From the IMG/VR virus record IMGVR_UViG_2541047712_000007: DNA of 16,704 nucleotides. One strand, written 5' to 3'. Below the pieces are notes generated by a model. The model was given only the letters and a program-made list of their open reading frames with translations, was not told where the DNA came from and made no database searches. The stretch is from a virus (Duplodnaviria > Heunggongvirae > Uroviricota > Caudoviricetes). The translations under genes and the position numbers were made by a program. Shown piece after piece: positions 9,242-15,390 of this stretch (position 1 is the stretch's first letter; every line of letters begins with the position of its first letter).

Positions 9242-9514
9242 TTATCTGTCCTGGTAATTTCGCCATATTTCATCGCTTACACCATCTATACCCATTTCAG
9301 CATAAGTGCGATCTACTGCCTTTCTCAGGTCTCCGAAGTTATCCGGCGGCTCCGGTGGCTTCTGTGCCTTCCTGGAACATTCCAGCCGTCGCATCGTAAC
9401 CTGATGCCGTTCCTTGTCTGTCTCCACCAGCAGCATGACTTCACCCCATCGCGCCGACGCCCTCCGGTAAAAGCCTTTCGCCTCGAGTTCTTCCGCTATG
9501 CGGTCATGTACCAT
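9242..9514 (-). CDS. Hypothetical protein (about 91 aa)
   Basis: ORF downstream of ssb. The ATG at 9514 has a GAGGGG Shine-Dalgarno 6 nt upstream; the track ORF extends to 9634 but would overlap ssb. No family recognised. Confidence 0.5.
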   Translation of the reverse strand: MVHDRIAEELEAKGFYRRASARWGEVMLLVETDKERHQVTMRRLECSRKAQKPPEPPDNFGDLRKAVDRTYAEMGIDGVSDEIWRNYQDR

Positions 9515-9524
9515 CGCCACCCCC

Positions 9525-9935
9525 TCAGAACGGAATACCGTCACCGTAAGGGTCATCGCCTCCCGCTGGTGGCTGATTACCCTGTGTGCCTGTGGTTTTG
9601 CGTCTGTTCCCGCCAGGACGTGCCGCACGGGCACTGATTACGCTGTCTGCAATAACCTGATAACCCTGCCGCGTTTCCCCGTTCTGTCCCGTCCACTGGC
9701 TGACCTGCATCGTGCCGGATACGCTGGCAACGTCGCCTTTTTGATGTTTAGCCAGGAAGTCGGCCTGCTTACCAAATGCGATGACCGATAGCCATAACGT
9801 CGCCTGCCCATCCTGCGCCTGACTACATGGCAACGATACCGCCATACGCGCCAGCGTCATCGGTGTGCCCTTACTGGTCTGTTTTACCTGCGGGTCGTCC
9901 ACCAGCCGCCCGTAAGCCGCTATCTGTGCTGTCAT
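9525..9935 (-). CDS. ssb: Single-stranded DNA-binding protein (136 aa)
   Basis: OB-fold-like N-terminal region (AAYGRLVDDPQV...LWLSVIAFGKQADFL), Gly/Gln/Pro-rich linker, and the C-terminal acidic tail ...DDPYGDGIPF resembling the SSB DDDIPF tip. ATG overlaps the upstream stop; GGAGAGGTGG Shine-Dalgarno. Confidence 0.85.
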   Translation of the reverse strand: MTAQIAAYGRLVDDPQVKQTSKGTPMTLARMAVSLPCSQAQDGQATLWLSVIAFGKQADFLAKHQKGDVASVSGTMQVSQWTGQNGETRQGYQVIADSVISARAARPGGNRRKTTGTQGNQPPAGGDDPYGDGIPF

Positions 9936-10498: not shown

Positions 10499-12253
10499 TT
10501 ATAAAAACGCGTCGCACTCGTCTGTTGTTATTGCGTTAGTCTGCGTTACTCCCTTAACTTTCCGCGTAATATATTCATGTCCGTAAACTTTCGCGGCTGG
10601 CTTCATAGCCTTGCCAAAGTCATTTACGTTTAGCGGTTTGCTCCTGCCTGCGTACGCCATAAACGCCAGATAGACGCGGTAAAGACTGTTTCTGGTCGTG
10701 TACTTCACTGAATCGCCACCGCCGCCCATCATCAGGCCGCGTGCTTCCTCCAGAAAATTCAGGAACTGGCAAAACTCAATAACCGGATCCGTCTGTTGCT
10801 TTATTGCCAGAGCTTCATCACCGTCACGCTGTTCCAGTAGTAAAGCCCTCGCCTTCTCAGGGTCGGTAAAGTTCGCCAGCAATCGGCGGATAATGACAGG
10901 GATTTCAGCCGCGATCTTTTCCGGTAGCTCCCTGTCTTTTTCGGCCTCACTGACGATATTGTCGAAACGGAAAATCACGCGACGACGTGCCACACCTCCG
11001 GCCCGTTCGGTGAATATCATCGGGTTATTGTTGGTCGCCAGCACCACCGCCCTGATTACAGCCGTGAAACGCTTTTCGTATTTCGGGTTAATTTCCACGG
11101 GGTCACCGCCCGTGATTTTCTTGATGCCCGTTCCTTCGCCTGTATATTTCGGCTGGTCAGCCAGGACGATAAGACGACTCCCGACAACCTGCGCACGTCC
11201 ACCAGCATCATCAAGCGATGTCATTTCAGCGCTTACCGTGTTCTGTTTCCCTGCCAGAAGGCTGGCTATGTGTGTGAATGTACTTTTACCGCTCCCGCCG
11301 TCTCCGGTGGCCTCAATAAACATCTGCCAGTCGTACCGGTTCGCCATAATCATGTACAGCGCGGCACATATACGCATCATCTTGCGCGGGTCTTTTCCGG
11401 CTGCGTGCTCAAGCCATTTATGAAAGTTTGGCGCGTTATCGCGGATGTTCTCCCCTGGTGCTGGTGGCGTGTACTCAATGCCGTTGTGCGTGGTGATCCA
11501 GTTCTCCGGCGTGTGCGGGGAAAATTCCCCCGTTTTCAGGTCAAGCGCACCATTGGCGAACGGCAGCAAATCGCCGGACGGCTCGCCCATTGGTTCGGCA
11601 ATAACTTTTAACGCTTCCACGGCGTTATTGATTACGCGCTTGCTGAAAGTGGCCCTGTGCTCTGAATAGATCGCCACCATTTCGCGGCTAAGTTCCATTG
11701 TGCTGACCGGACACCATACCCCGCCGCGCCATACGTGAACGATTTCACTTTCAGGATGTACGCAAACGCCATCAAAGCGATCGGCAAGCAGCTGCGCGCG
11801 CTCACTGTCCGCCATCTGCGAAAGTTGCGCCTTTTGCTTTACCGGAAGCTCAATGACCAGACCATCAGAAAGATTCTGGCGCTCACGGGCCAGATATTCG
11901 CGCCAGTTCTCCACCTTCTGACCGTGCATACCCTCAGGATAAAAATTTGCATCCTGTACGCCTGCCGCCGCCAGCTTCTGGCCAATCGCCTTTATCATTA
12001 CTGGCGCAAGATATCCGGCCCTGAATATGCGCACGGATTTTCTGCCTTCCGGCACAATTTGCAGCTTATCCAGTTCTGATAACTGCTGCTCCCCAAGCCA
12101 CACAGGAGGCTCATTATCTCCGGCCATACGCGCATCATGTTCCTGCCATTGTTTCGCGTGTGCCCAGGCATCACTACCCGCAAAAATAATGACTTCTGTT
12201 CCTTTGTGTTTTATGCCGCGTGACTGCTGTTTTACGTTCGGTGCCAGTTTCAT
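10499..12253 (-). CDS. P4-family primase / SF3-type helicase replication protein (584 aa)
   Basis: Walker A motif TGDGGSGKSTF in the C-terminal half, size, and the position upstream of the iteron origin. ATG overlaps the upstream stop (ATGA). Confidence 0.9.
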   Translation of the reverse strand: MKLAPNVKQQSRGIKHKGTEVIIFAGSDAWAHAKQWQEHDARMAGDNEPPVWLGEQQLSELDKLQIVPEGRKSVRIFRAGYLAPVMIKAIGQKLAAAGVQDANFYPEGMHGQKVENWREYLARERQNLSDGLVIELPVKQKAQLSQMADSERAQLLADRFDGVCVHPESEIVHVWRGGVWCPVSTMELSREMVAIYSEHRATFSKRVINNAVEALKVIAEPMGEPSGDLLPFANGALDLKTGEFSPHTPENWITTHNGIEYTPPAPGENIRDNAPNFHKWLEHAAGKDPRKMMRICAALYMIMANRYDWQMFIEATGDGGSGKSTFTHIASLLAGKQNTVSAEMTSLDDAGGRAQVVGSRLIVLADQPKYTGEGTGIKKITGGDPVEINPKYEKRFTAVIRAVVLATNNNPMIFTERAGGVARRRVIFRFDNIVSEAEKDRELPEKIAAEIPVIIRRLLANFTDPEKARALLLEQRDGDEALAIKQQTDPVIEFCQFLNFLEEARGLMMGGGGDSVKYTTRNSLYRVYLAFMAYAGRSKPLNVNDFGKAMKPAAKVYGHEYITRKVKGVTQTNAITTDECDAFL

Positions 12254-12549
12254 TTTTTACCCCTGAATCCTTTAATCATGGTTTTCATCTTCTGAATATT
12301 GGCGCGTGCTTTCTCCCTGCTGGTGGGCACGTTACGCGGTACGGCCTGCACAAGAGAAAAATCACGGTCGAACTGATAAACAGGCATCACGCAATCATAT
12401 TCGTAGCCTTCACGACGGTAGGTTACGCGCCGTTCCTCCACGCCCTTAATCATTACCGTGCCGCCGTACTTATCGCGGTAAATATCACCGCGCATGAATT
12501 TAGTGCGAGTTTTGCCACTGGCAGTTAAGCCAGAATATTTAAGTTTCAT
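12250..12549 (-). CDS. Hypothetical protein (99 aa), basic
   Basis: ATG at 12549 with GGAGAA upstream; translationally coupled to the primase. No family recognised. Confidence 0.6.
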   Translation of the reverse strand: MKLKYSGLTASGKTRTKFMRGDIYRDKYGGTVMIKGVEERRVTYRREGYEYDCVMPVYQFDRDFSLVQAVPRNVPTSREKARANIQKMKTMIKGFRGKK

Positions 12550-12554
12550 TATTT

Positions 12555-12788
12555 TTATTCTCCGGTGTGGGGCGCTTTATACTGGTCGTGTAATGTCTCT
12601 ATTTCCTGCAACTCATTTATTACAGGCTCAAGAAGCGTTATTAATGCCGTGACAATCCTTGATTTCTGTTTATCACGTTCATTATCTCCAAGCGTTTCAA
12701 GACATATGCGCAATATTTCCAACATATTTTCACTGTGAGAAAGTGCAAGAAATGCGCGGTCTATTGTTTCGTGGTAAATATCACGCAT
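12555..12788 (-). CDS. Hypothetical protein (77 aa)
   Basis: ATG at 12788 with GGGGA Shine-Dalgarno; tightly packed in the operon. Confidence 0.55.
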   Translation of the reverse strand: MRDIYHETIDRAFLALSHSENMLEILRICLETLGDNERDKQKSRIVTALITLLEPVINELQEIETLHDQYKAPHTGE

Positions 12789-12789
12789 A

Positions 12790-13011
12790 TTAATCCCCGT
12801 CCGTCGTTTTTCTTAAAATAACCTCTGTCACGAAATCAGCATAATCGGCGGCGATATTCAGTACATCAAGCCCCGTTGATTTATATTCTCTCGTGGAAAG
12901 TAAGAAAAAAGCCGCTCTAATAAGCTCTGGCATTGACGAAAGCGCATCAGCCGCATCATCAGGAACGCCGGAAAATTCCTGTTTCAGGGAATTAAAACGA
13001 TCATCACGCAT
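12790..13011 (-). CDS. Hypothetical protein (73 aa), acidic
   Basis: ATG at 13011 with AGGGGGG Shine-Dalgarno; overlaps the upstream stop. Confidence 0.55.
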   Translation of the reverse strand: MRDDRFNSLKQEFSGVPDDAADALSSMPELIRAAFFLLSTREYKSTGLDVLNIAADYADFVTEVILRKTTDGD

Positions 13012-13369
13012 GTTTACCCCCCTGAATGACCTGATAACCGCAACTGGTCAGCAACTCGATAAATTCCGGCAGTGTGCCGAAACAGCAATCATCACGCAGC
13101 CGTTCGCAGGATACCTCGACGCCGTTTTCGTAGTGACTCACCATACATCCGGTAAAATGCAGATCATCATCGTGATGGCTCGTTGACGGCTTAATCAGTC
13201 GCGCACGTTCCGCCAGTTCCAGCAATGCTTCAACGCTTCCGGCAATTGCACCATCCGGCAGGTGATAATTACGCACTATGCGCCCGTTCTCCACATTGAC
13301 CAGCAACTGCCCGGTAAATTTCTCGTCAAACTGAATGCTGTTAAGGTCAGAAATTGACAGGTTATGCAT
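13004..13369 (-). CDS. Hypothetical protein (about 121 aa)
   Basis: ATG at 13369 (MHNLSISD...) with GGAGG upstream, overlapping the upstream stop; the track ORF extends to 13387. Confidence 0.55.
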   Translation of the reverse strand: MHNLSISDLNSIQFDEKFTGQLLVNVENGRIVRNYHLPDGAIAGSVEALLELAERARLIKPSTSHHDDDLHFTGCMVSHYENGVEVSCERLRDDCCFGTLPEFIELLTSCGYQVIQGGKHA

Positions 13370-13586
13370 GGTGCACCTCCTGCACATCAGCCATGATAAT
13401 TTTTCCGGCCTTATCCAGTGCCTGATCGGCTTTTAGCTGCACAAATGCTAAATAATGGAAGATGCATTCTGATTCTCTGGCTGCGTGTTTATGCGCCCTG
13501 TCAGCAATAACAGAAATATCAATAAGCGCGTGCATCAGCGTAGTGAGCGCGGCGGCTGCTGCGTCCGGTGTGGTTTTATTGCACAT
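13362..13586 (-). CDS. Hypothetical protein (74 aa)
   Basis: ATG at 13586 with AGGGGGT Shine-Dalgarno. Confidence 0.5.
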   Translation of the reverse strand: MCNKTTPDAAAAALTTLMHALIDISVIADRAHKHAARESECIFHYLAFVQLKADQALDKAGKIIMADVQEVHHA

Positions 13587-13782
13587 GGCCTACCCCCTGG
13601 CGAATACGGGCAGCGAATACCATCACGCAGCCATCAGGAGATTGCTGACGCGCTTCCTGTTCGCTGGTGGCCTCGATGGTAATCACGCGCGGTTGTGCCG
13701 TGCTCAGGGCGATAAAACGCCAGATGTATTTATTCAGGTCGTGCGAATCCCGCCCTTGCGGGTGTGTGGTATGATTTCTCAT
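13576..13782 (-). CDS. Hypothetical protein (68 aa), first gene of the leftward operon
   Basis: ATG at 13782 with GAGG 5 nt upstream. It is the C-terminal, plausible part of a 430-aa track ORF whose remainder is antisense to plus-strand genes and the operator region. Confidence 0.45.
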   Translation of the reverse strand: MRNHTTHPQGRDSHDLNKYIWRFIALSTAQPRVITIEATSEQEARQQSPDGCVMVFAARIRQGVGHVQ

Positions 13783-13878
13783 AGCTACCTCGATACTTTC
13801 GCTATCGTTGGTGGTTAGAAGCCCGGTTAGTGTTAGCGCACTGCCGGGTTTCGTCGTTTCTGCACCTTGCGCCAACAA

Positions 13879-13931
13879 GGTGTTGAACACCAATTTAAAC
13901 CCAGGTGTTAAACACGTCAAGTGTTGAACAC
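13879..13931. promoter_or_regulatory. Triple palindromic operator in a divergent promoter region
   Basis: Three copies of the palindrome GTGTT-N-AACAC: gtgttgaacac (13880-13890), gtgttaaacac (13905-13915), gtgttgaacac (13921-13931), lying between the leftward operon start (13782) and the plus-strand RHH gene (13982). Confidence 0.7.
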
Positions 13932-13981
13932 TTATTTTTTTTCCTGCATACTGCATTTGTTTTTTATGAGGGGTACACCAC

Positions 13982-14161
13982 ATGGCGACAAAAGCAGTAA
14001 ACGCAAAATCACAAACCGTTGCGGCAAGGGTTCCGCATGAAGTTATGAACAATGTTGAGGCGGTAAAAATGCCTGGCGAAAGTACGGGGCAATTTGTTAC
14101 TGCGGCATTAAAACGAGAAGTTGAATATCGCCAGCGGCGCAAGGCCAAAGAACCAGAGTAA
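13982..14161 (+). CDS. Ribbon-helix-helix (Arc/CopG-like) DNA-binding protein, 59 aa; candidate island repressor
   Basis: ATG at 13982 with GAGGGG Shine-Dalgarno. The translation has an RHH-like beta-strand (QTVAARVPHEV) followed by two helices. Below the ORF-track length cutoff; I translated it directly. Confidence 0.6.
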   Translation: MATKAVNAKSQTVAARVPHEVMNNVEAVKMPGESTGQFVTAALKREVEYRQRRKAKEPE

Positions 14162-14218
14162 TCACCATCAGCGCCGTGGTGTGAGGAACTACGGCGCATT
14201 GCTATGCAGGACAACACA

Positions 14219-14392
14219 ATGACCGATAAAGAATTGACCAAAACATTATCACCGGCACGGAAAAGACGGCGCAGAAAGATAGAGCATGAATCAGAAAGAT
14301 TCGCGCCATGTGCTTTTGCCCTTGAGCAATTCCTTAAAGAGTACAGGGAAAAGCGCTCATTGCAGGTATGGCAACGAACTGAACCAGACTGA
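14219..14392 (+). CDS. Hypothetical small basic protein (about 57 aa)
   Basis: ATG at 14219 with AGGA 7 nt upstream (track ORF starts at 14204). Arg-rich (RKRRRRK); followed by a plus-strand terminator. Confidence 0.3.
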   Translation: MTDKELTKTLSPARKRRRRKIEHESERFAPCAFALEQFLKEYREKRSLQVWQRTEPD

Positions 14393-14470
14393 TTGCATTG
14401 CCCACCAGCCGCAAATGTGGCATTGTTGGCAATGCTCATGCGTTGGGGATAACGTGTAGCTTGTGTCGAG

Positions 14471-14500
14471 GGGCCACCGTAGCGGGTGGCCTTTGTTTTG
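14471..14500 (+). terminator. Rho-independent terminator (plus strand)
   Basis: Hairpin ggccacc-gtagcg-ggtggcc followed by tttgttttg. Confidence 0.6.
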
Positions 14501-14594
14501 CCCGTTATTCGGCAATTGTGGCGCTTCTCCACATGGTTGATATAATCCCACTGCTCAGATTCATTTTTTGCGCAGTAGGTTAATTGTTCACAAA

Positions 14595-14626
14595 GGCGCT
14601 CCGGCAACGGGGCGCTTTTTGTTTTT
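14595..14626 (+). terminator. Rho-independent terminator (plus strand), GNRA loop
   Basis: Hairpin gcgctccg-GCAA-cggggcgc (8 bp including one G-U) followed by tttttgttttt. Confidence 0.6.
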
Positions 14627-14920
14627 ATTAGTTTGTAGAAACCTGACTCAGAGATAATGCTCATATTCTGATTGCCGTCAGGGGTGTAAGTTAAATTTAC
14701 TCCCTTTTTATCATCAAACATCTGCAACGCTCTGGCGTTAGCAATATTGGTTTCACTCCCGCCAGTAAGGCCGGAAATAACCGGAATAATTTCGGCAAAA
14801 TTTTGCAGATTCTGTTTTTCAGGACGAACGAAGCCCCGCCCTTGTTCGGGAGAATATCCAGTATTCATGGTTAGATCTCTGTATTAGTGGATGGGTGGCG
14901 GCTGTGTGCCGCCAGCCTGA

Positions 14921-15109
14921 TTAGTGAACTGCCTCGCAGCTGTCCTTCCATGCCAGAACTTCGGATAAAGACCAGCCAACGGAACGACCGCCCAGCTTAC
15001 GCCGTGATGGGAATTGTCCGGCTTTTTCCAGGCGGTACCGACATGAGCGGCTCAGGCCTGTAAGTTGCTGACATTCTTTTTCACGTATAAAGCGATCTGT
15101 GCTTAACAC
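14921..15109 (-). CDS. alpA: AlpA-family transcriptional regulator / excisionase-like protein (62 aa)
   Basis: QQLTGLSRSCRYRLEKAGQFP...KLGGRSVGWSLSEVLAW matches the AlpA winged-helix signature. GTG start at 15109 with AGGGGGAA upstream. Confidence 0.8.
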   Translation of the reverse strand: MLSTDRFIREKECQQLTGLSRSCRYRLEKAGQFPSRRKLGGRSVGWSLSEVLAWKDSCEAVH

Positions 15110-15113
15110 AATT

Positions 15114-15195
15114 CCCCCTTTGTTGTTTCTTAAAGAGTCATTGGGTGGATTATTGGGTTGGGTTGTGTCGGATTGTGTCAGGGTGTTTGTGGAAT
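15114..15195. promoter_or_regulatory. TTGT-rich phased direct repeats immediately upstream of alpA
   Basis: 10-bp register: ttgggtggat / tattgggttg / ggttgtgtcg / gattgtgtca / gggtgtttgt (15141-15190), preceded by tttgttgtttc (15117-15127). Confidence 0.45.
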
Positions 15196-15390
15196 GGCAA
15201 ACACTGGCGGCGGTCGTTTTACAGAAGCAGGGGGAATGAGAATAAAAACTCTTTTAATTCATTATGATGCAAAGGCATAAAATTTTACTTTTACGCCTTT
15301 TTTACATATTTTTAAGAGTGATTCGCCAGTGTATAAAAAAACAGTACACCTATAAAAATCAAATGGTTATTACGATGGCTGATTTTTAAC

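Follow-up and report, generated by a model that had tools for sequence, protein, structure and literature searches.

An Icd-like leader gene, a putative antisense RNA and exchangeable small genes heading the replication operon of an Escherichia coli capsid-forming phage-inducible chromosomal island

Introduction

The window considered here, that is, the whole 16,704-nucleotide stretch of DNA that was analysed (IMG/VR virus record IMGVR_UViG_2541047712_000007), is 100% identical to the chromosome of Escherichia coli 266917_2 and holds a complete capsid-forming phage-inducible chromosomal island (cf-PICI, with PICI used for such islands generally). At issue are six small open reading frames (ORFs), designated O1 through O6, which are found on the minus strand at 13782-12250. 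The original prediction, made on these letters without database searches, had described them as six ORFs of 68-121 aa that head the replication operon of a satellite and are flanked by a regulatory switch and by the primase, and as to size, coordinates and position that description stands. The most interesting result at this locus appears to be an antisense RNA which apparently gates the first of these genes, an Icd-like leader, together with a YlcI-type operator system. The genes of the block, along with the replicase gene that they precede, are as follows.

13782-13576, minus strand: O1, 68 aa, Icd-like leader ORF, with which the operon begins
13586-13362, minus strand: O2, 74 aa, predicted helical protein, a highly polymorphic cassette
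13369-13004, minus strand: O3, 121 aa, acidic, with an internal duplication of ~40 aa, a sporadic cassette between O2 and O4
13011-12790, minus strand: O4, 73 aa, acidic (pI 4.4)
12788-12555, minus strand: O5, 77 aa, acidic, near-universal in its slot, an ORFan family
12549-12250, minus strand: O6, 99 aa, basic (pI 10.2), DUF4222, RgdR orthologue
12253-10499, minus strand: P4-family primase/D5_N replicase, 584 aa, with matches to TIGR01613, D5_N, DUF5906 and Pox_D5, a downstream gene of the same operon

Coupling and Conservation of the Six Genes

Reading along the operon, O1 overlaps O2 by 11 nt, O2 overlaps O3 by 8 nt and O3 overlaps O4 by 8 nt, with O6 in turn overlapping the start of the primase gene by the 4 nt of an ATGA. 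The 'overlapping start and stop codons' of the original prediction hence are literally present at four of the six junctions, with genes at the other two nearly abutting, i.e., gaps of 1 nt between O4 and O5 and of 5 nt between O5 and O6. The good Shine-Dalgarno sequences that also had been claimed were found, as purine-rich motifs located 5-10 nt before each of the six starts (GAGGT, GGGGGT, AGGAGGT, GGGGGGT, GGGGA and GGAGA, in the order O1 to O6). For O3 the start employed is the Shine-Dalgarno-preceded ATG, which is the RefSeq choice as well. RefSeq annotates all six genes at the identical locus, as an "Icd-like protein", four "hypothetical proteins" and a "DUF4222 domain-containing protein".

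Selection acting on these genes was gauged as the ratio of nonsynonymous to synonymous divergence (dN/dS), by the Nei-Gojobori method, using 80 related viral-contig loci along with Shigella and E. albertii loci surrounding O6 homologues. Median dN/dS in the annotated frames was 0.37 for O1, 0.50 for O2, 0.38 for both O4 and O5, and 0.27 for O6, versus roughly 0.7-1.6 when the frames of these same genes were shifted. Variation in O3 was too low among these loci, and Salmonella and metagenomic copies were added, giving a dN/dS of 0.25-0.38 at a dS of 0.23-0.69, with shifted frames at 0.7-2.3. Given dN/dS values of 0.25-0.50 in the annotated frames versus higher ones in the shifted frames, all six genes therefore are, by this measure, under purifying selection, if somewhat relaxed in comparison with core genes (medians of 0.15 for the primase and 0.12 for alpA). 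A lack of conservation or of purifying selection had been named as what would count against the block; what was found instead are conserved genes within that range of dN/dS. Parts of the block are present in 1715 of 5426 complete E. coli genomes, with at least 80% of this particular arrangement seen in only 137 of them.

The view that none of the six belongs to a recognisable family does not survive database comparison, as O1 passes NCBIfam NF033153, O6 passes Pfam DUF4222 and all six match PHROG families. The six families nevertheless are mutually unrelated, with all 15 pairs at or below 2.6% by hhalign. This includes O4 and O5, which begin with the same three residues, MRD, and which had been suggested, from this and from their similar size, to be possible paralogues. 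That paralogy is rejected, as BLASTP produces no alignment between the two at E <= 100 and hhalign returns a probability of 0.6%; the shared 'MRD' start is coincidental.

The Leader Gene and a Candidate RNA Opposite It

O1 matches the Icd-like model NF033153 at 9.7e-20 (70.4 bits, with a cutoff of 25, over profile positions 1-48), the same model on which Icd of phage P1 scores 52.6 bits. Compared directly, O1 and P1 Icd are 37% identical over a 43-residue core (E 2e-7). By these matches O1 is an Icd-like protein homologous to P1 Icd, a protein annotated as a host cell division inhibitor (P1 genome annotation). Structure prediction, which had been put forward as a way of checking on these genes, was informative for O1 to the extent that its AlphaFold2 core displays a beta-beta-alpha-beta topology at moderate confidence (predicted local distance difference test, pLDDT, of ~80), with neither a significant structural neighbour nor a functional match found in fold searches. 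The same approach failed with O3, for which the AlphaFold model, based on 29 homologues, has a pLDDT of 47 and is unusable. Concerning Icd-like proteins more broadly (alignment A3), the 45-residue Icd core is itself an intragenic mosaic of exchangeable segments, in some proteins (P0246) it stands behind an Ash-family (PF10554) N-terminus, and forms of 120-122 aa carry an insertion of ~55 residues within the core.

Opposite the beginning of O1 are two further features.

13783-13862, plus strand: candidate ~80-nt cis-antisense RNA, opposite the O1 5' untranslated region and Shine-Dalgarno sequence, consisting of two hairpins followed by a U-rich tail
13767-13775, plus strand: extended -10 element TGgTATGAT, within O1 codons 3-5, as read from the sequence

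The candidate RNA starts one base outside of the coordinates of the six-gene block. In a permissive scan it matches SymR (Rfam RF01809) across the full model, 1-77, at 33.3 bits (E 7.9e-5 on 261 nt), with the gathering score being 61. Its layout is that of SymR, i.e., cis-antisense to the 5' end of its target and with a predicted promoter found inside of the target ORF. The -10 element is retained as TATGAT or TATAAT across both of the O1 N-terminal allele classes, with the transcription start a presumed one. The fold has a z-score of -5.2. Across 23 distinct sequences there are 23 predicted pairs, 9 of them with compensatory changes, and 97.9% of cells pair versus 91.1% in shuffles, with none of 500 shuffles reaching the observed value on any of five measures. 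If the partners are slid out of register, then pairing falls to 35-59%. This structure, in addition, is specific to one strand: standard pairs amount to 97.9% versus 70.5% for the mirrored structure on the O1 mRNA strand, which pairs less because 28% of the pairs are G·U. Alifold energies similarly are -24.1 kcal/mol for the antisense strand versus -5.2 kcal/mol for the O1 mRNA strand, with the antisense strand the more stable in all 23 sequences.

A covariance model, R1, was built from these sequences and scanned over 88 sources, in which it gave 79 matches, one of them in the window and all of them opposite the operon. These matches include loci outside of the set from which the model was built, Salmonella-type islands and a metagenomic island; in P4 and P1 there was no match. 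At every one of the 45 sites examined, the first base of an ATG-initiated ORF falls at +1 or -5 as counted from the RNA 5' end, the RNA abutting or overlapping the leader ATG, and 41 of these 45 ORFs are Icd-like. The RNA locus is found in at least 844 of the 5426 complete E. coli genomes, where it is unannotated as RNA in RefSeq, and a literature search turned up no description of the element. RNAs of the C4 or CI type were found neither in the window at gathering score nor in a permissive Rfam scan of 13500-15300; the window as a whole yields no Rfam match at gathering score and no tRNA (Rfam and tRNA scans). On the strength of its covariation, register and strandedness, the stretch 13783-13862 is a conserved, strand-specific structured RNA gene, presumably transcribed, that is antisense to the O1 translation-initiation region, and O1 appears to be held in check by it.

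A second, weaker copy of this element is located about 750 nt upstream in five loci (L035 2025-2104, L052 2332-2411, L067 2586-2666, L081 2331-2410 and L085 2227-2307). There it abuts an ORF of 224-316 aa which starts MAIKEHSLLF and which mostly is not Icd-like. From these second copies it would seem that the element can gate another leader gene as well.

Predicted Promoter, Operators and a Candidate Repressor

Upstream of O1, and beyond the candidate RNA, the following are found.

13880, 13905 and 13921 (span 13880-13931): three predicted palindromic operators, GTGTT(G/A)AACAC
-35 at 13920-13915 and -10 at 13897-13892, minus strand: predicted leftward promoter, from a promoter scan
13982-14161, plus strand: divergent YlcI/YnfO-family gene, 59 aa, NF041551 at 2.1e-16

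Counting reverse strands, the palindrome gives 7 matches versus an expectation of 0.49, and its three copies straddle the -35 and -10 elements of the predicted leftward promoter. Three copies of GTGTTnAACAC are seen only in loci whose YlcI/YnfO protein is 98-100% identical to that of the window, with the other 13 YlcI allele groups possessing different repeated palindromes at the same place, e.g., CTGGAATCCAG/GTGGATTCCAC in L081 and TGTGCGCACA in L074 (loci behind this comparison include, besides these two, L010, L013, L032, L060 and L064). The operators, that is, change along with the YlcI allele, and this covariation therefore points to YlcI as a candidate sequence-specific repressor of the operon. 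Such a role is notable in not having been assigned in the PICI literature surveyed, within which it is called unclear whether Gram-negative PICIs have a master repressor (PMC6092414). About 430 nt downstream of ylcI is a strong terminator-like hairpin (14592-14619, plus strand; 12-bp stem and T-run), which may end the ylcI transcript.

The RgdR Orthologue

O6 matches Pfam DUF4222 (PF13973) over residues 17-68 at 2.5e-24 (85 bits, with a gathering score of 27). RgdR (ECs1581) is a 99-aa, pI-10 regulator encoded by O-island 51 of enterohaemorrhagic E. coli (EHEC) O157, one which, as shown for ECs1581 and C1493, activates LEE1 (LEE being the locus of enterocyte effacement) as well as type III secretion and represses motility; its binding to DNA is non-specific (PMC3378721). 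It is, furthermore, encoded by all of the E. coli PICIs analysed by Fillol-Salom et al. (PMC6092414). Like RgdR of EHEC O157:H7, O6 is 99 aa in length, possesses DUF4222, an RGD at residues 20-22 and K35, and is encoded directly upstream of the island replicase. It is identical at 85 of 99 residues to a copy in which each of the six positions diagnostic of ECs1581 has the ECs1581 residue, and in mass and pI it agrees with what has been published. By these resemblances O6 is an orthologue of RgdR (ECs1581). It differs from RgdR at four diagnostic positions, A10, K27, R45 and D61, which follow the variant of commensal strain ED1a, and at the positions that have been shown to matter, R20 and K35, it resembles the active EHEC protein. 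At its diagnostic positions O6 thereby would be equivalent to the engineered, active C20R+N35K form of the ED1a protein.

O6 invariably closes the series of small genes and overlaps the replicase start, and this is so whether the replicase is of the primase, the RepA-type helicase or the DUF927 type. A scan of species-representative genomes with O6 found it in Shigella and E. albertii only, single-protein patterns reaching only close relatives.

A Fixed Frame with Exchangeable Cassettes

Gene order across loci is constant: divergent ylcI, Icd-like leader, a variable middle, O5, O6 and then the replicase. Within this frame there are 22 architectures among 55 complete slots. The commonest, with 11 slots, is the six-gene form of the window, followed by the same form minus O3 (9 slots) and then by one in which O2 and O4, between which the window has O3, are fused into a single protein of ~154 aa (7 slots). 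This fusion is a hint, of the Rosetta-stone kind, that O2 and O4 act together. Identities between loci are discordant from gene to gene, e.g., in one example locus 61% to the window for O1, 99.5% for O4, 86% for O5 and 99.5% for the primase, and the pairwise distances of neighbouring genes are weakly correlated (rho 0.1-0.44). From conserved order, discordant identities and weak correlations it follows that the cassettes are exchanged independently.

As to individual cassettes, O2 matches phrog_5146 at 1e-44, varies between 30 and 100% identity among islands, and in other islands forms one protein with a C-terminus of the O4 type (WP_000336167, of 154 aa, and phrog_2512 being examples). O4 corresponds to phrog_24341 and also to the C-terminal half of phrog_2512, O3 to phrog_340 and O5 to phrog_2196. 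A relationship between O2 and O3, both of which match the N-terminal half of phrog_2512, was considered and dropped, with nothing seen by either BLASTP or hhalign; a family of O2::O4 fusions is the better explanation for phrog_2512. The O3 family consists of 70 clusters, all of them from E. coli, Salmonella or E. albertii. Its internal duplication is of a strand-plus-helix module of ~40 residues, present as a single copy in relatives of ~83 aa (alignment A1), and these shorter relatives look like recombination products that have lost one copy. O3 occurs in addition in Salmonella, on an island backbone of another kind (int, AlpA, AntA ... O3, DUF4222, primase or helicase, ProQ, PerC). A zinc site in this Cys/His-rich protein was rejected, C75 and C89 being Arg in many homologues, and a match of O3 to designed armadillo repeats in the PDB, which covers about 23 residues of a helix, was dismissed. 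O5 is present in 74 of 78 slots, yet an exhaustive search among 1.84 billion protein clusters gave just 8 representatives.

O3, O4 and O5 are acidic, with pIs of 4.4-5.1. Searches of Pfam, NCBIfam, PADLOC and the PDB produced no match for O2 through O5, PADLOC-DB 2.0 gave 0 families for any of O1 through O6 at E <= 0.1, and a PDB sequence search with all six found no meaningful match. In the phage collection O2 through O5 were found only in satellites and not in phages, with only one satellite-sized record having a relative. O2 through O5 are, as far as these distributions go, narrow, satellite-restricted and freely recombining cassettes, to which the model presented below assigns only a proposed role.

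The Island That Carries the Block

The element is ~14.4 kb in length and lies between phoQ and roxA. Its genes are those for an integrase, an AlpA-type regulator, the divergent YlcI/YnfO protein, the six small proteins, primase, SSB and a PerC-family protein, along with head and packaging genes (HK97 capsid, protease, portal, head-closure and connector proteins, HNH, TerS and TerL). No tail or lysis genes are present in the RefSeq annotation of the identical island locus. Two of these genes lie at higher coordinates than ylcI.

16704-15475, minus strand: tyrosine integrase
15109-14921, minus strand: AlpA-family regulator, PF05930 at 3e-18

The element accordingly combines a backbone of tyrosine integrase, AlpA and pri/rep replicase running in one direction, a head and packaging module of its own, an absence of tail and lysis genes, and a size of about 15 kb. 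This gene content is the same as that described for EcCIEDL933, and on that basis the element is classed as a cf-PICI of E. coli. EcCIEDL933 is said to be induced by a helper via alpA and to be transferred in its own capsids joined to helper tails.

AlpA activates the cycles and operons of Gram-negative PICIs following helper induction, with uncontrolled island induction being toxic (PMC6092414). Between alpA and ylcI, at about 14137-14664 (minus strand), is a truncated BRO-N domain pseudogene (RefSeq), a position which in related islands is occupied by other remnants or by an intact AntA/BRO-type gene. Downstream of ssb is the PerC-family gene (9242-9634, minus strand), with a weak match to the ANR family of regulators (E 0.013); PICI PerC homologues have been reported both as LEE activators and as LEE silencers. 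Residues 1 to ~125 of the primase (11879-12253) match a separate PHROG, phrog_2850, and are shared, at an identity of about 64%, with replicases from related islands which for the rest differ from the primase, being of the RepA-helicase type (L002 and many others). This N-terminus looks like a common module placed upon different replicase bodies.

Related Systems

The closest relatives of this island are cf-PICI EcCIEDL933 (O-island 51 or CP-933C) and PICI EcCICFT073, with which it shares the order int, alpA, small genes, rgdR, pri/rep, ssb and perC and, with cf-PICIs, HK97 capsid, protease, portal, connectors, HNH, terS and terL. The neighbourhood from phoQ to roxA-pepT is as found in related islands, as is rgdR directly upstream of the replicase. 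The EDL933-type relatives examined differ in having four small genes, i.e., with an O2::O4 fusion, and a RepA-type helicase rather than the six genes, O3 cassette and 584-aa primase allele seen here. The published PICI and cf-PICI descriptions that were surveyed make no mention of an antisense RNA, a YlcI repressor or a function for O2 through O5.

The immI region of phage P1 (C4 RNA, icd, ant) resembles the present locus in that a homologous Icd-like leader heads an operon and overlaps the next gene; icd there shares 4 nt with ant1, its annotation states that ant expression requires it, and target sites of C4 RNA are found a short way upstream. It is at translation of this leader that a small RNA controls the downstream genes. 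It is unlike the present locus in that C4 RNA is on the same strand, upstream of icd and of another RNA family rather than cis-antisense, and in that what lies downstream is an antirepressor rather than unrelated small proteins and a primase. The left operon of P4 (vis, Icd-like ORF137, epsilon, ORF151, ORF106, alpha) also is comparable, consisting of an AlpA/Vis-type regulator, an Icd-like ORF, small overlapping ORFs and a P4-family primase. Its first ORF, the old "cI" ORF137 (X51522/L094, 8168-8584, minus strand), matches NF033153 at 7.8e-21 and overlaps epsilon by 8 nt, with ORF151, ORF106 and the alpha primase then following. Direct alignment of O1 with ORF137 nonetheless is weak (E 0.07), the locally built O1 profile missing ORF137 where NCBIfam detects it, and the link between O1 and P4 is, going by these comparisons, at the level of the family only. 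Homology of O2 through O6 to epsilon, ORF151 or ORF106 was sought and none was found; beyond the Icd-like domain and primase family, the P4 small ORFs show no sequence relationship to those here, and P4 immunity, unlike the arrangement here, is via CI RNA, with R1 having no match in P4. What P1, P4 and these PICIs all have, as judged from these family matches, is an early operon headed by an Icd-like leader.

Lastly there is SymE/SymR, an E. coli type I toxin-antitoxin system, to which the locus is similar in the weak but full-length match to the SymR model and in its antisense layout (cf. PMC1891008). The target in that case is AbrB-fold SymE rather than an Icd-like protein, control is through LexA boxes rather than YlcI-type operators, and the target here heads a seven-gene operon.

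A Working Model and Its Alternatives

Much of the above is already known, i.e., the cf-PICI family, the RefSeq gene calls, and the Icd-like and DUF4222 families, and the block is an ordinary if poorly understood part of a satellite. The reading that we favour, with a probability of roughly 60%, is that the six ORFs are the promoter-proximal, early part of the cf-PICI replication operon, one that is gated by antisense RNA and repressor and is translationally coupled. In the resting island a YlcI-type repressor would shut the promoter, and the antisense RNA would block translation of the Icd-like leader, O1. This block would also silence O2 through O6 as well as the primase because these are translationally coupled to O1. 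Analogous gating is seen with P1, where C4 RNA acts via icd upon ant, and with P4, where CI RNA acts via the Icd-like first ORF upon alpha. Upon helper induction via AlpA, as known from the literature, the operon would be expressed, with O1 then arresting host division, O6, as a basic protein, binding DNA and modulating host transcription, and O2 through O5 supplying variable host- or helper-takeover factors just before replication starts. By analogy, the two genes with functional precedent, O1 (cell division) and O6 (host transcription), point at the host rather than at the helper.

A number of points weigh against this reading. That O1 would inhibit division is an extrapolation from P1 Icd, to which it is 37% identical over 43 residues, and the fold search was without a functional match. 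The match to SymR, at 33.3 bits, falls short of the 61-bit gathering score, the U-tract of the window's own allele is weak, with the terminator scan making no call there, and the start of the antisense RNA, the activity of its promoter and its effect upon O1 are all inferred from sequence. O2 through O5 match nothing in Pfam, NCBIfam, PADLOC or the PDB, and no small gene co-varies strongly with the replicase allele, correlations being 0.35 or less. RgdR, moreover, acts on type III secretion in uninduced EHEC (PMC3378721), and therefore O6 at least is expressed without induction, meaning that silencing is not absolute or that O6 has its own route of expression.

That last point is also where the block, or most of it, could be seen instead as lysogenic-conversion cargo, regulating host virulence, motility and surface traits and having no role in the satellite cycle. 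Even without helper induction, LEE expression, type III secretion and the colonisation of sheep all are diminished when rgdR or OI-51 is deleted, and RgdR represses motility (PMC3378721); RgdR and PerC are listed as accessory virulence regulators of PICIs (PMC6092414), and a PerC-family gene is found in this same island. We consider cargo improbable as an account of the block, however, since these genes are located inside of the replication operon and coupled to the primase rather than in the usual accessory hot-spots flanking the packaging module, since O5 and O6 are near-universal in the islands of LEE-negative strains as well, and since the leader is Icd-like and gated, as is typical of lytic-cycle genes. 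About equally improbable is that O6, perhaps with O5, is a replication accessory factor which works with the replicase at the island origin, with effects on host transcription being side effects of non-specific DNA binding. The invariable placement of O6 against the replicase start, whatever the replicase type, would fit with this, as would its very basic character (pI 10.2), the non-specific DNA binding of RgdR (PMC3378721) and the N-terminal ~125 aa (64% identity) that different replicases share, which might be a common docking surface. The distances of O6 and the primase are, though, weakly correlated (rho 0.27), the literature surveyed links RgdR to no replication role, and what has been shown to be required in EcCICFT073 is pri-rep rather than its neighbours (PMC6092414).

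An abortive-infection or superinfection-exclusion module, in which a phage protein relieves the gate and the Icd-like protein with its small partners stops the cell, is somewhat less improbable, if still unlikely. Its model is E. coli ECOR61, where growth arrest is set off by orf24, an accessory gene of a phage, and has been mapped to a pair of small overlapping ORFs along with an Icd-like gene of 121 aa, the latter being the likely effector of phage-triggered cell death or growth arrest within a prophage locus of six genes that includes a primase; reconstitution takes every one of the six linked genes, primase among them, and removal of the Icd-like gene abolishes the effect (bioRxiv 10.1101/2023.04.06.535777). 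That gene, at 366 nt, fits the size of a 121-122-aa leader class which occurs in this island family, and the pairing of an antisense RNA with a leader that may be toxic is reminiscent of a type I toxin-antitoxin pair. The likeness to ECOR61 is, however, drawn from the published description, a need for the primase and all six genes fits ordinary island induction, which itself is toxic (PMC6092414), none of the six has a PADLOC match, and O1 is not a small hydrophobic peptide such as are the classical type I toxins (maximum Kyte-Doolittle score of 0.71). Rather doubtful, too, but the least so of these alternatives, is that O2 through O5 are directed at the helper, i.e., as factors for helper sensing or derepression, helper interference or anti-defence, which is what the original prediction had proposed for this position. 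In P4 the helper-derepression factor, epsilon, occupies the equivalent position, between the Icd-like ORF and alpha in a left operon of the same architecture. O3, O4 and O5 are small and acidic, as inhibitors that phages direct at host or phage proteins commonly are, such extreme mosaicism of cassettes and diversity of alleles are what is expected of an arms-race locus, and the genes are found in satellites only rather than in phages. Against this, the six families match no P4 ORF, no defence or anti-defence model and no solved structure, dN/dS is below 1 throughout, with no diversifying selection found, and the papers surveyed contain no experiments on these genes.

Returning to the gated, coupled early operon that we prefer, it can be extended into a larger claim, one that is speculative and that we consider unlikely. 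Here the Icd-like leader and its antisense RNA would constitute an undescribed, type I toxin-antitoxin-like immunity switch of Escherichia and Salmonella PICIs, silencing the whole replication operon via translational coupling and releasing a division-arresting protein upon phage perturbation. That switch would serve both satellite induction and abortive infection, thereby explaining ECOR61, with O2 through O5 being exchangeable effectors against helpers or host defences and YlcI the long-sought master repressor of Gram-negative PICIs.

Significance

About one in three complete E. coli genomes contains PICIs or cf-PICIs, and these islands carry genes for virulence and defence from cell to cell. 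What had been a block of hypothetical genes in one such island can now be described in terms of a structured model: an Icd-like leader of a kind shared with P1 and P4, a conserved candidate antisense RNA opposite its ribosome-binding site, allele-matched operators for a YlcI-type repressor, four cassettes, and RgdR coupled to the replicase. Should the RNA gate prove false, then the block still is a well-documented, ordinary early region of a known satellite family. Should the gate prove true, then it would link P1 immI, P4 immunity and SymE/SymR to the control of PICIs, and would offer an explanation for a published phenotype of phage-triggered cell death.

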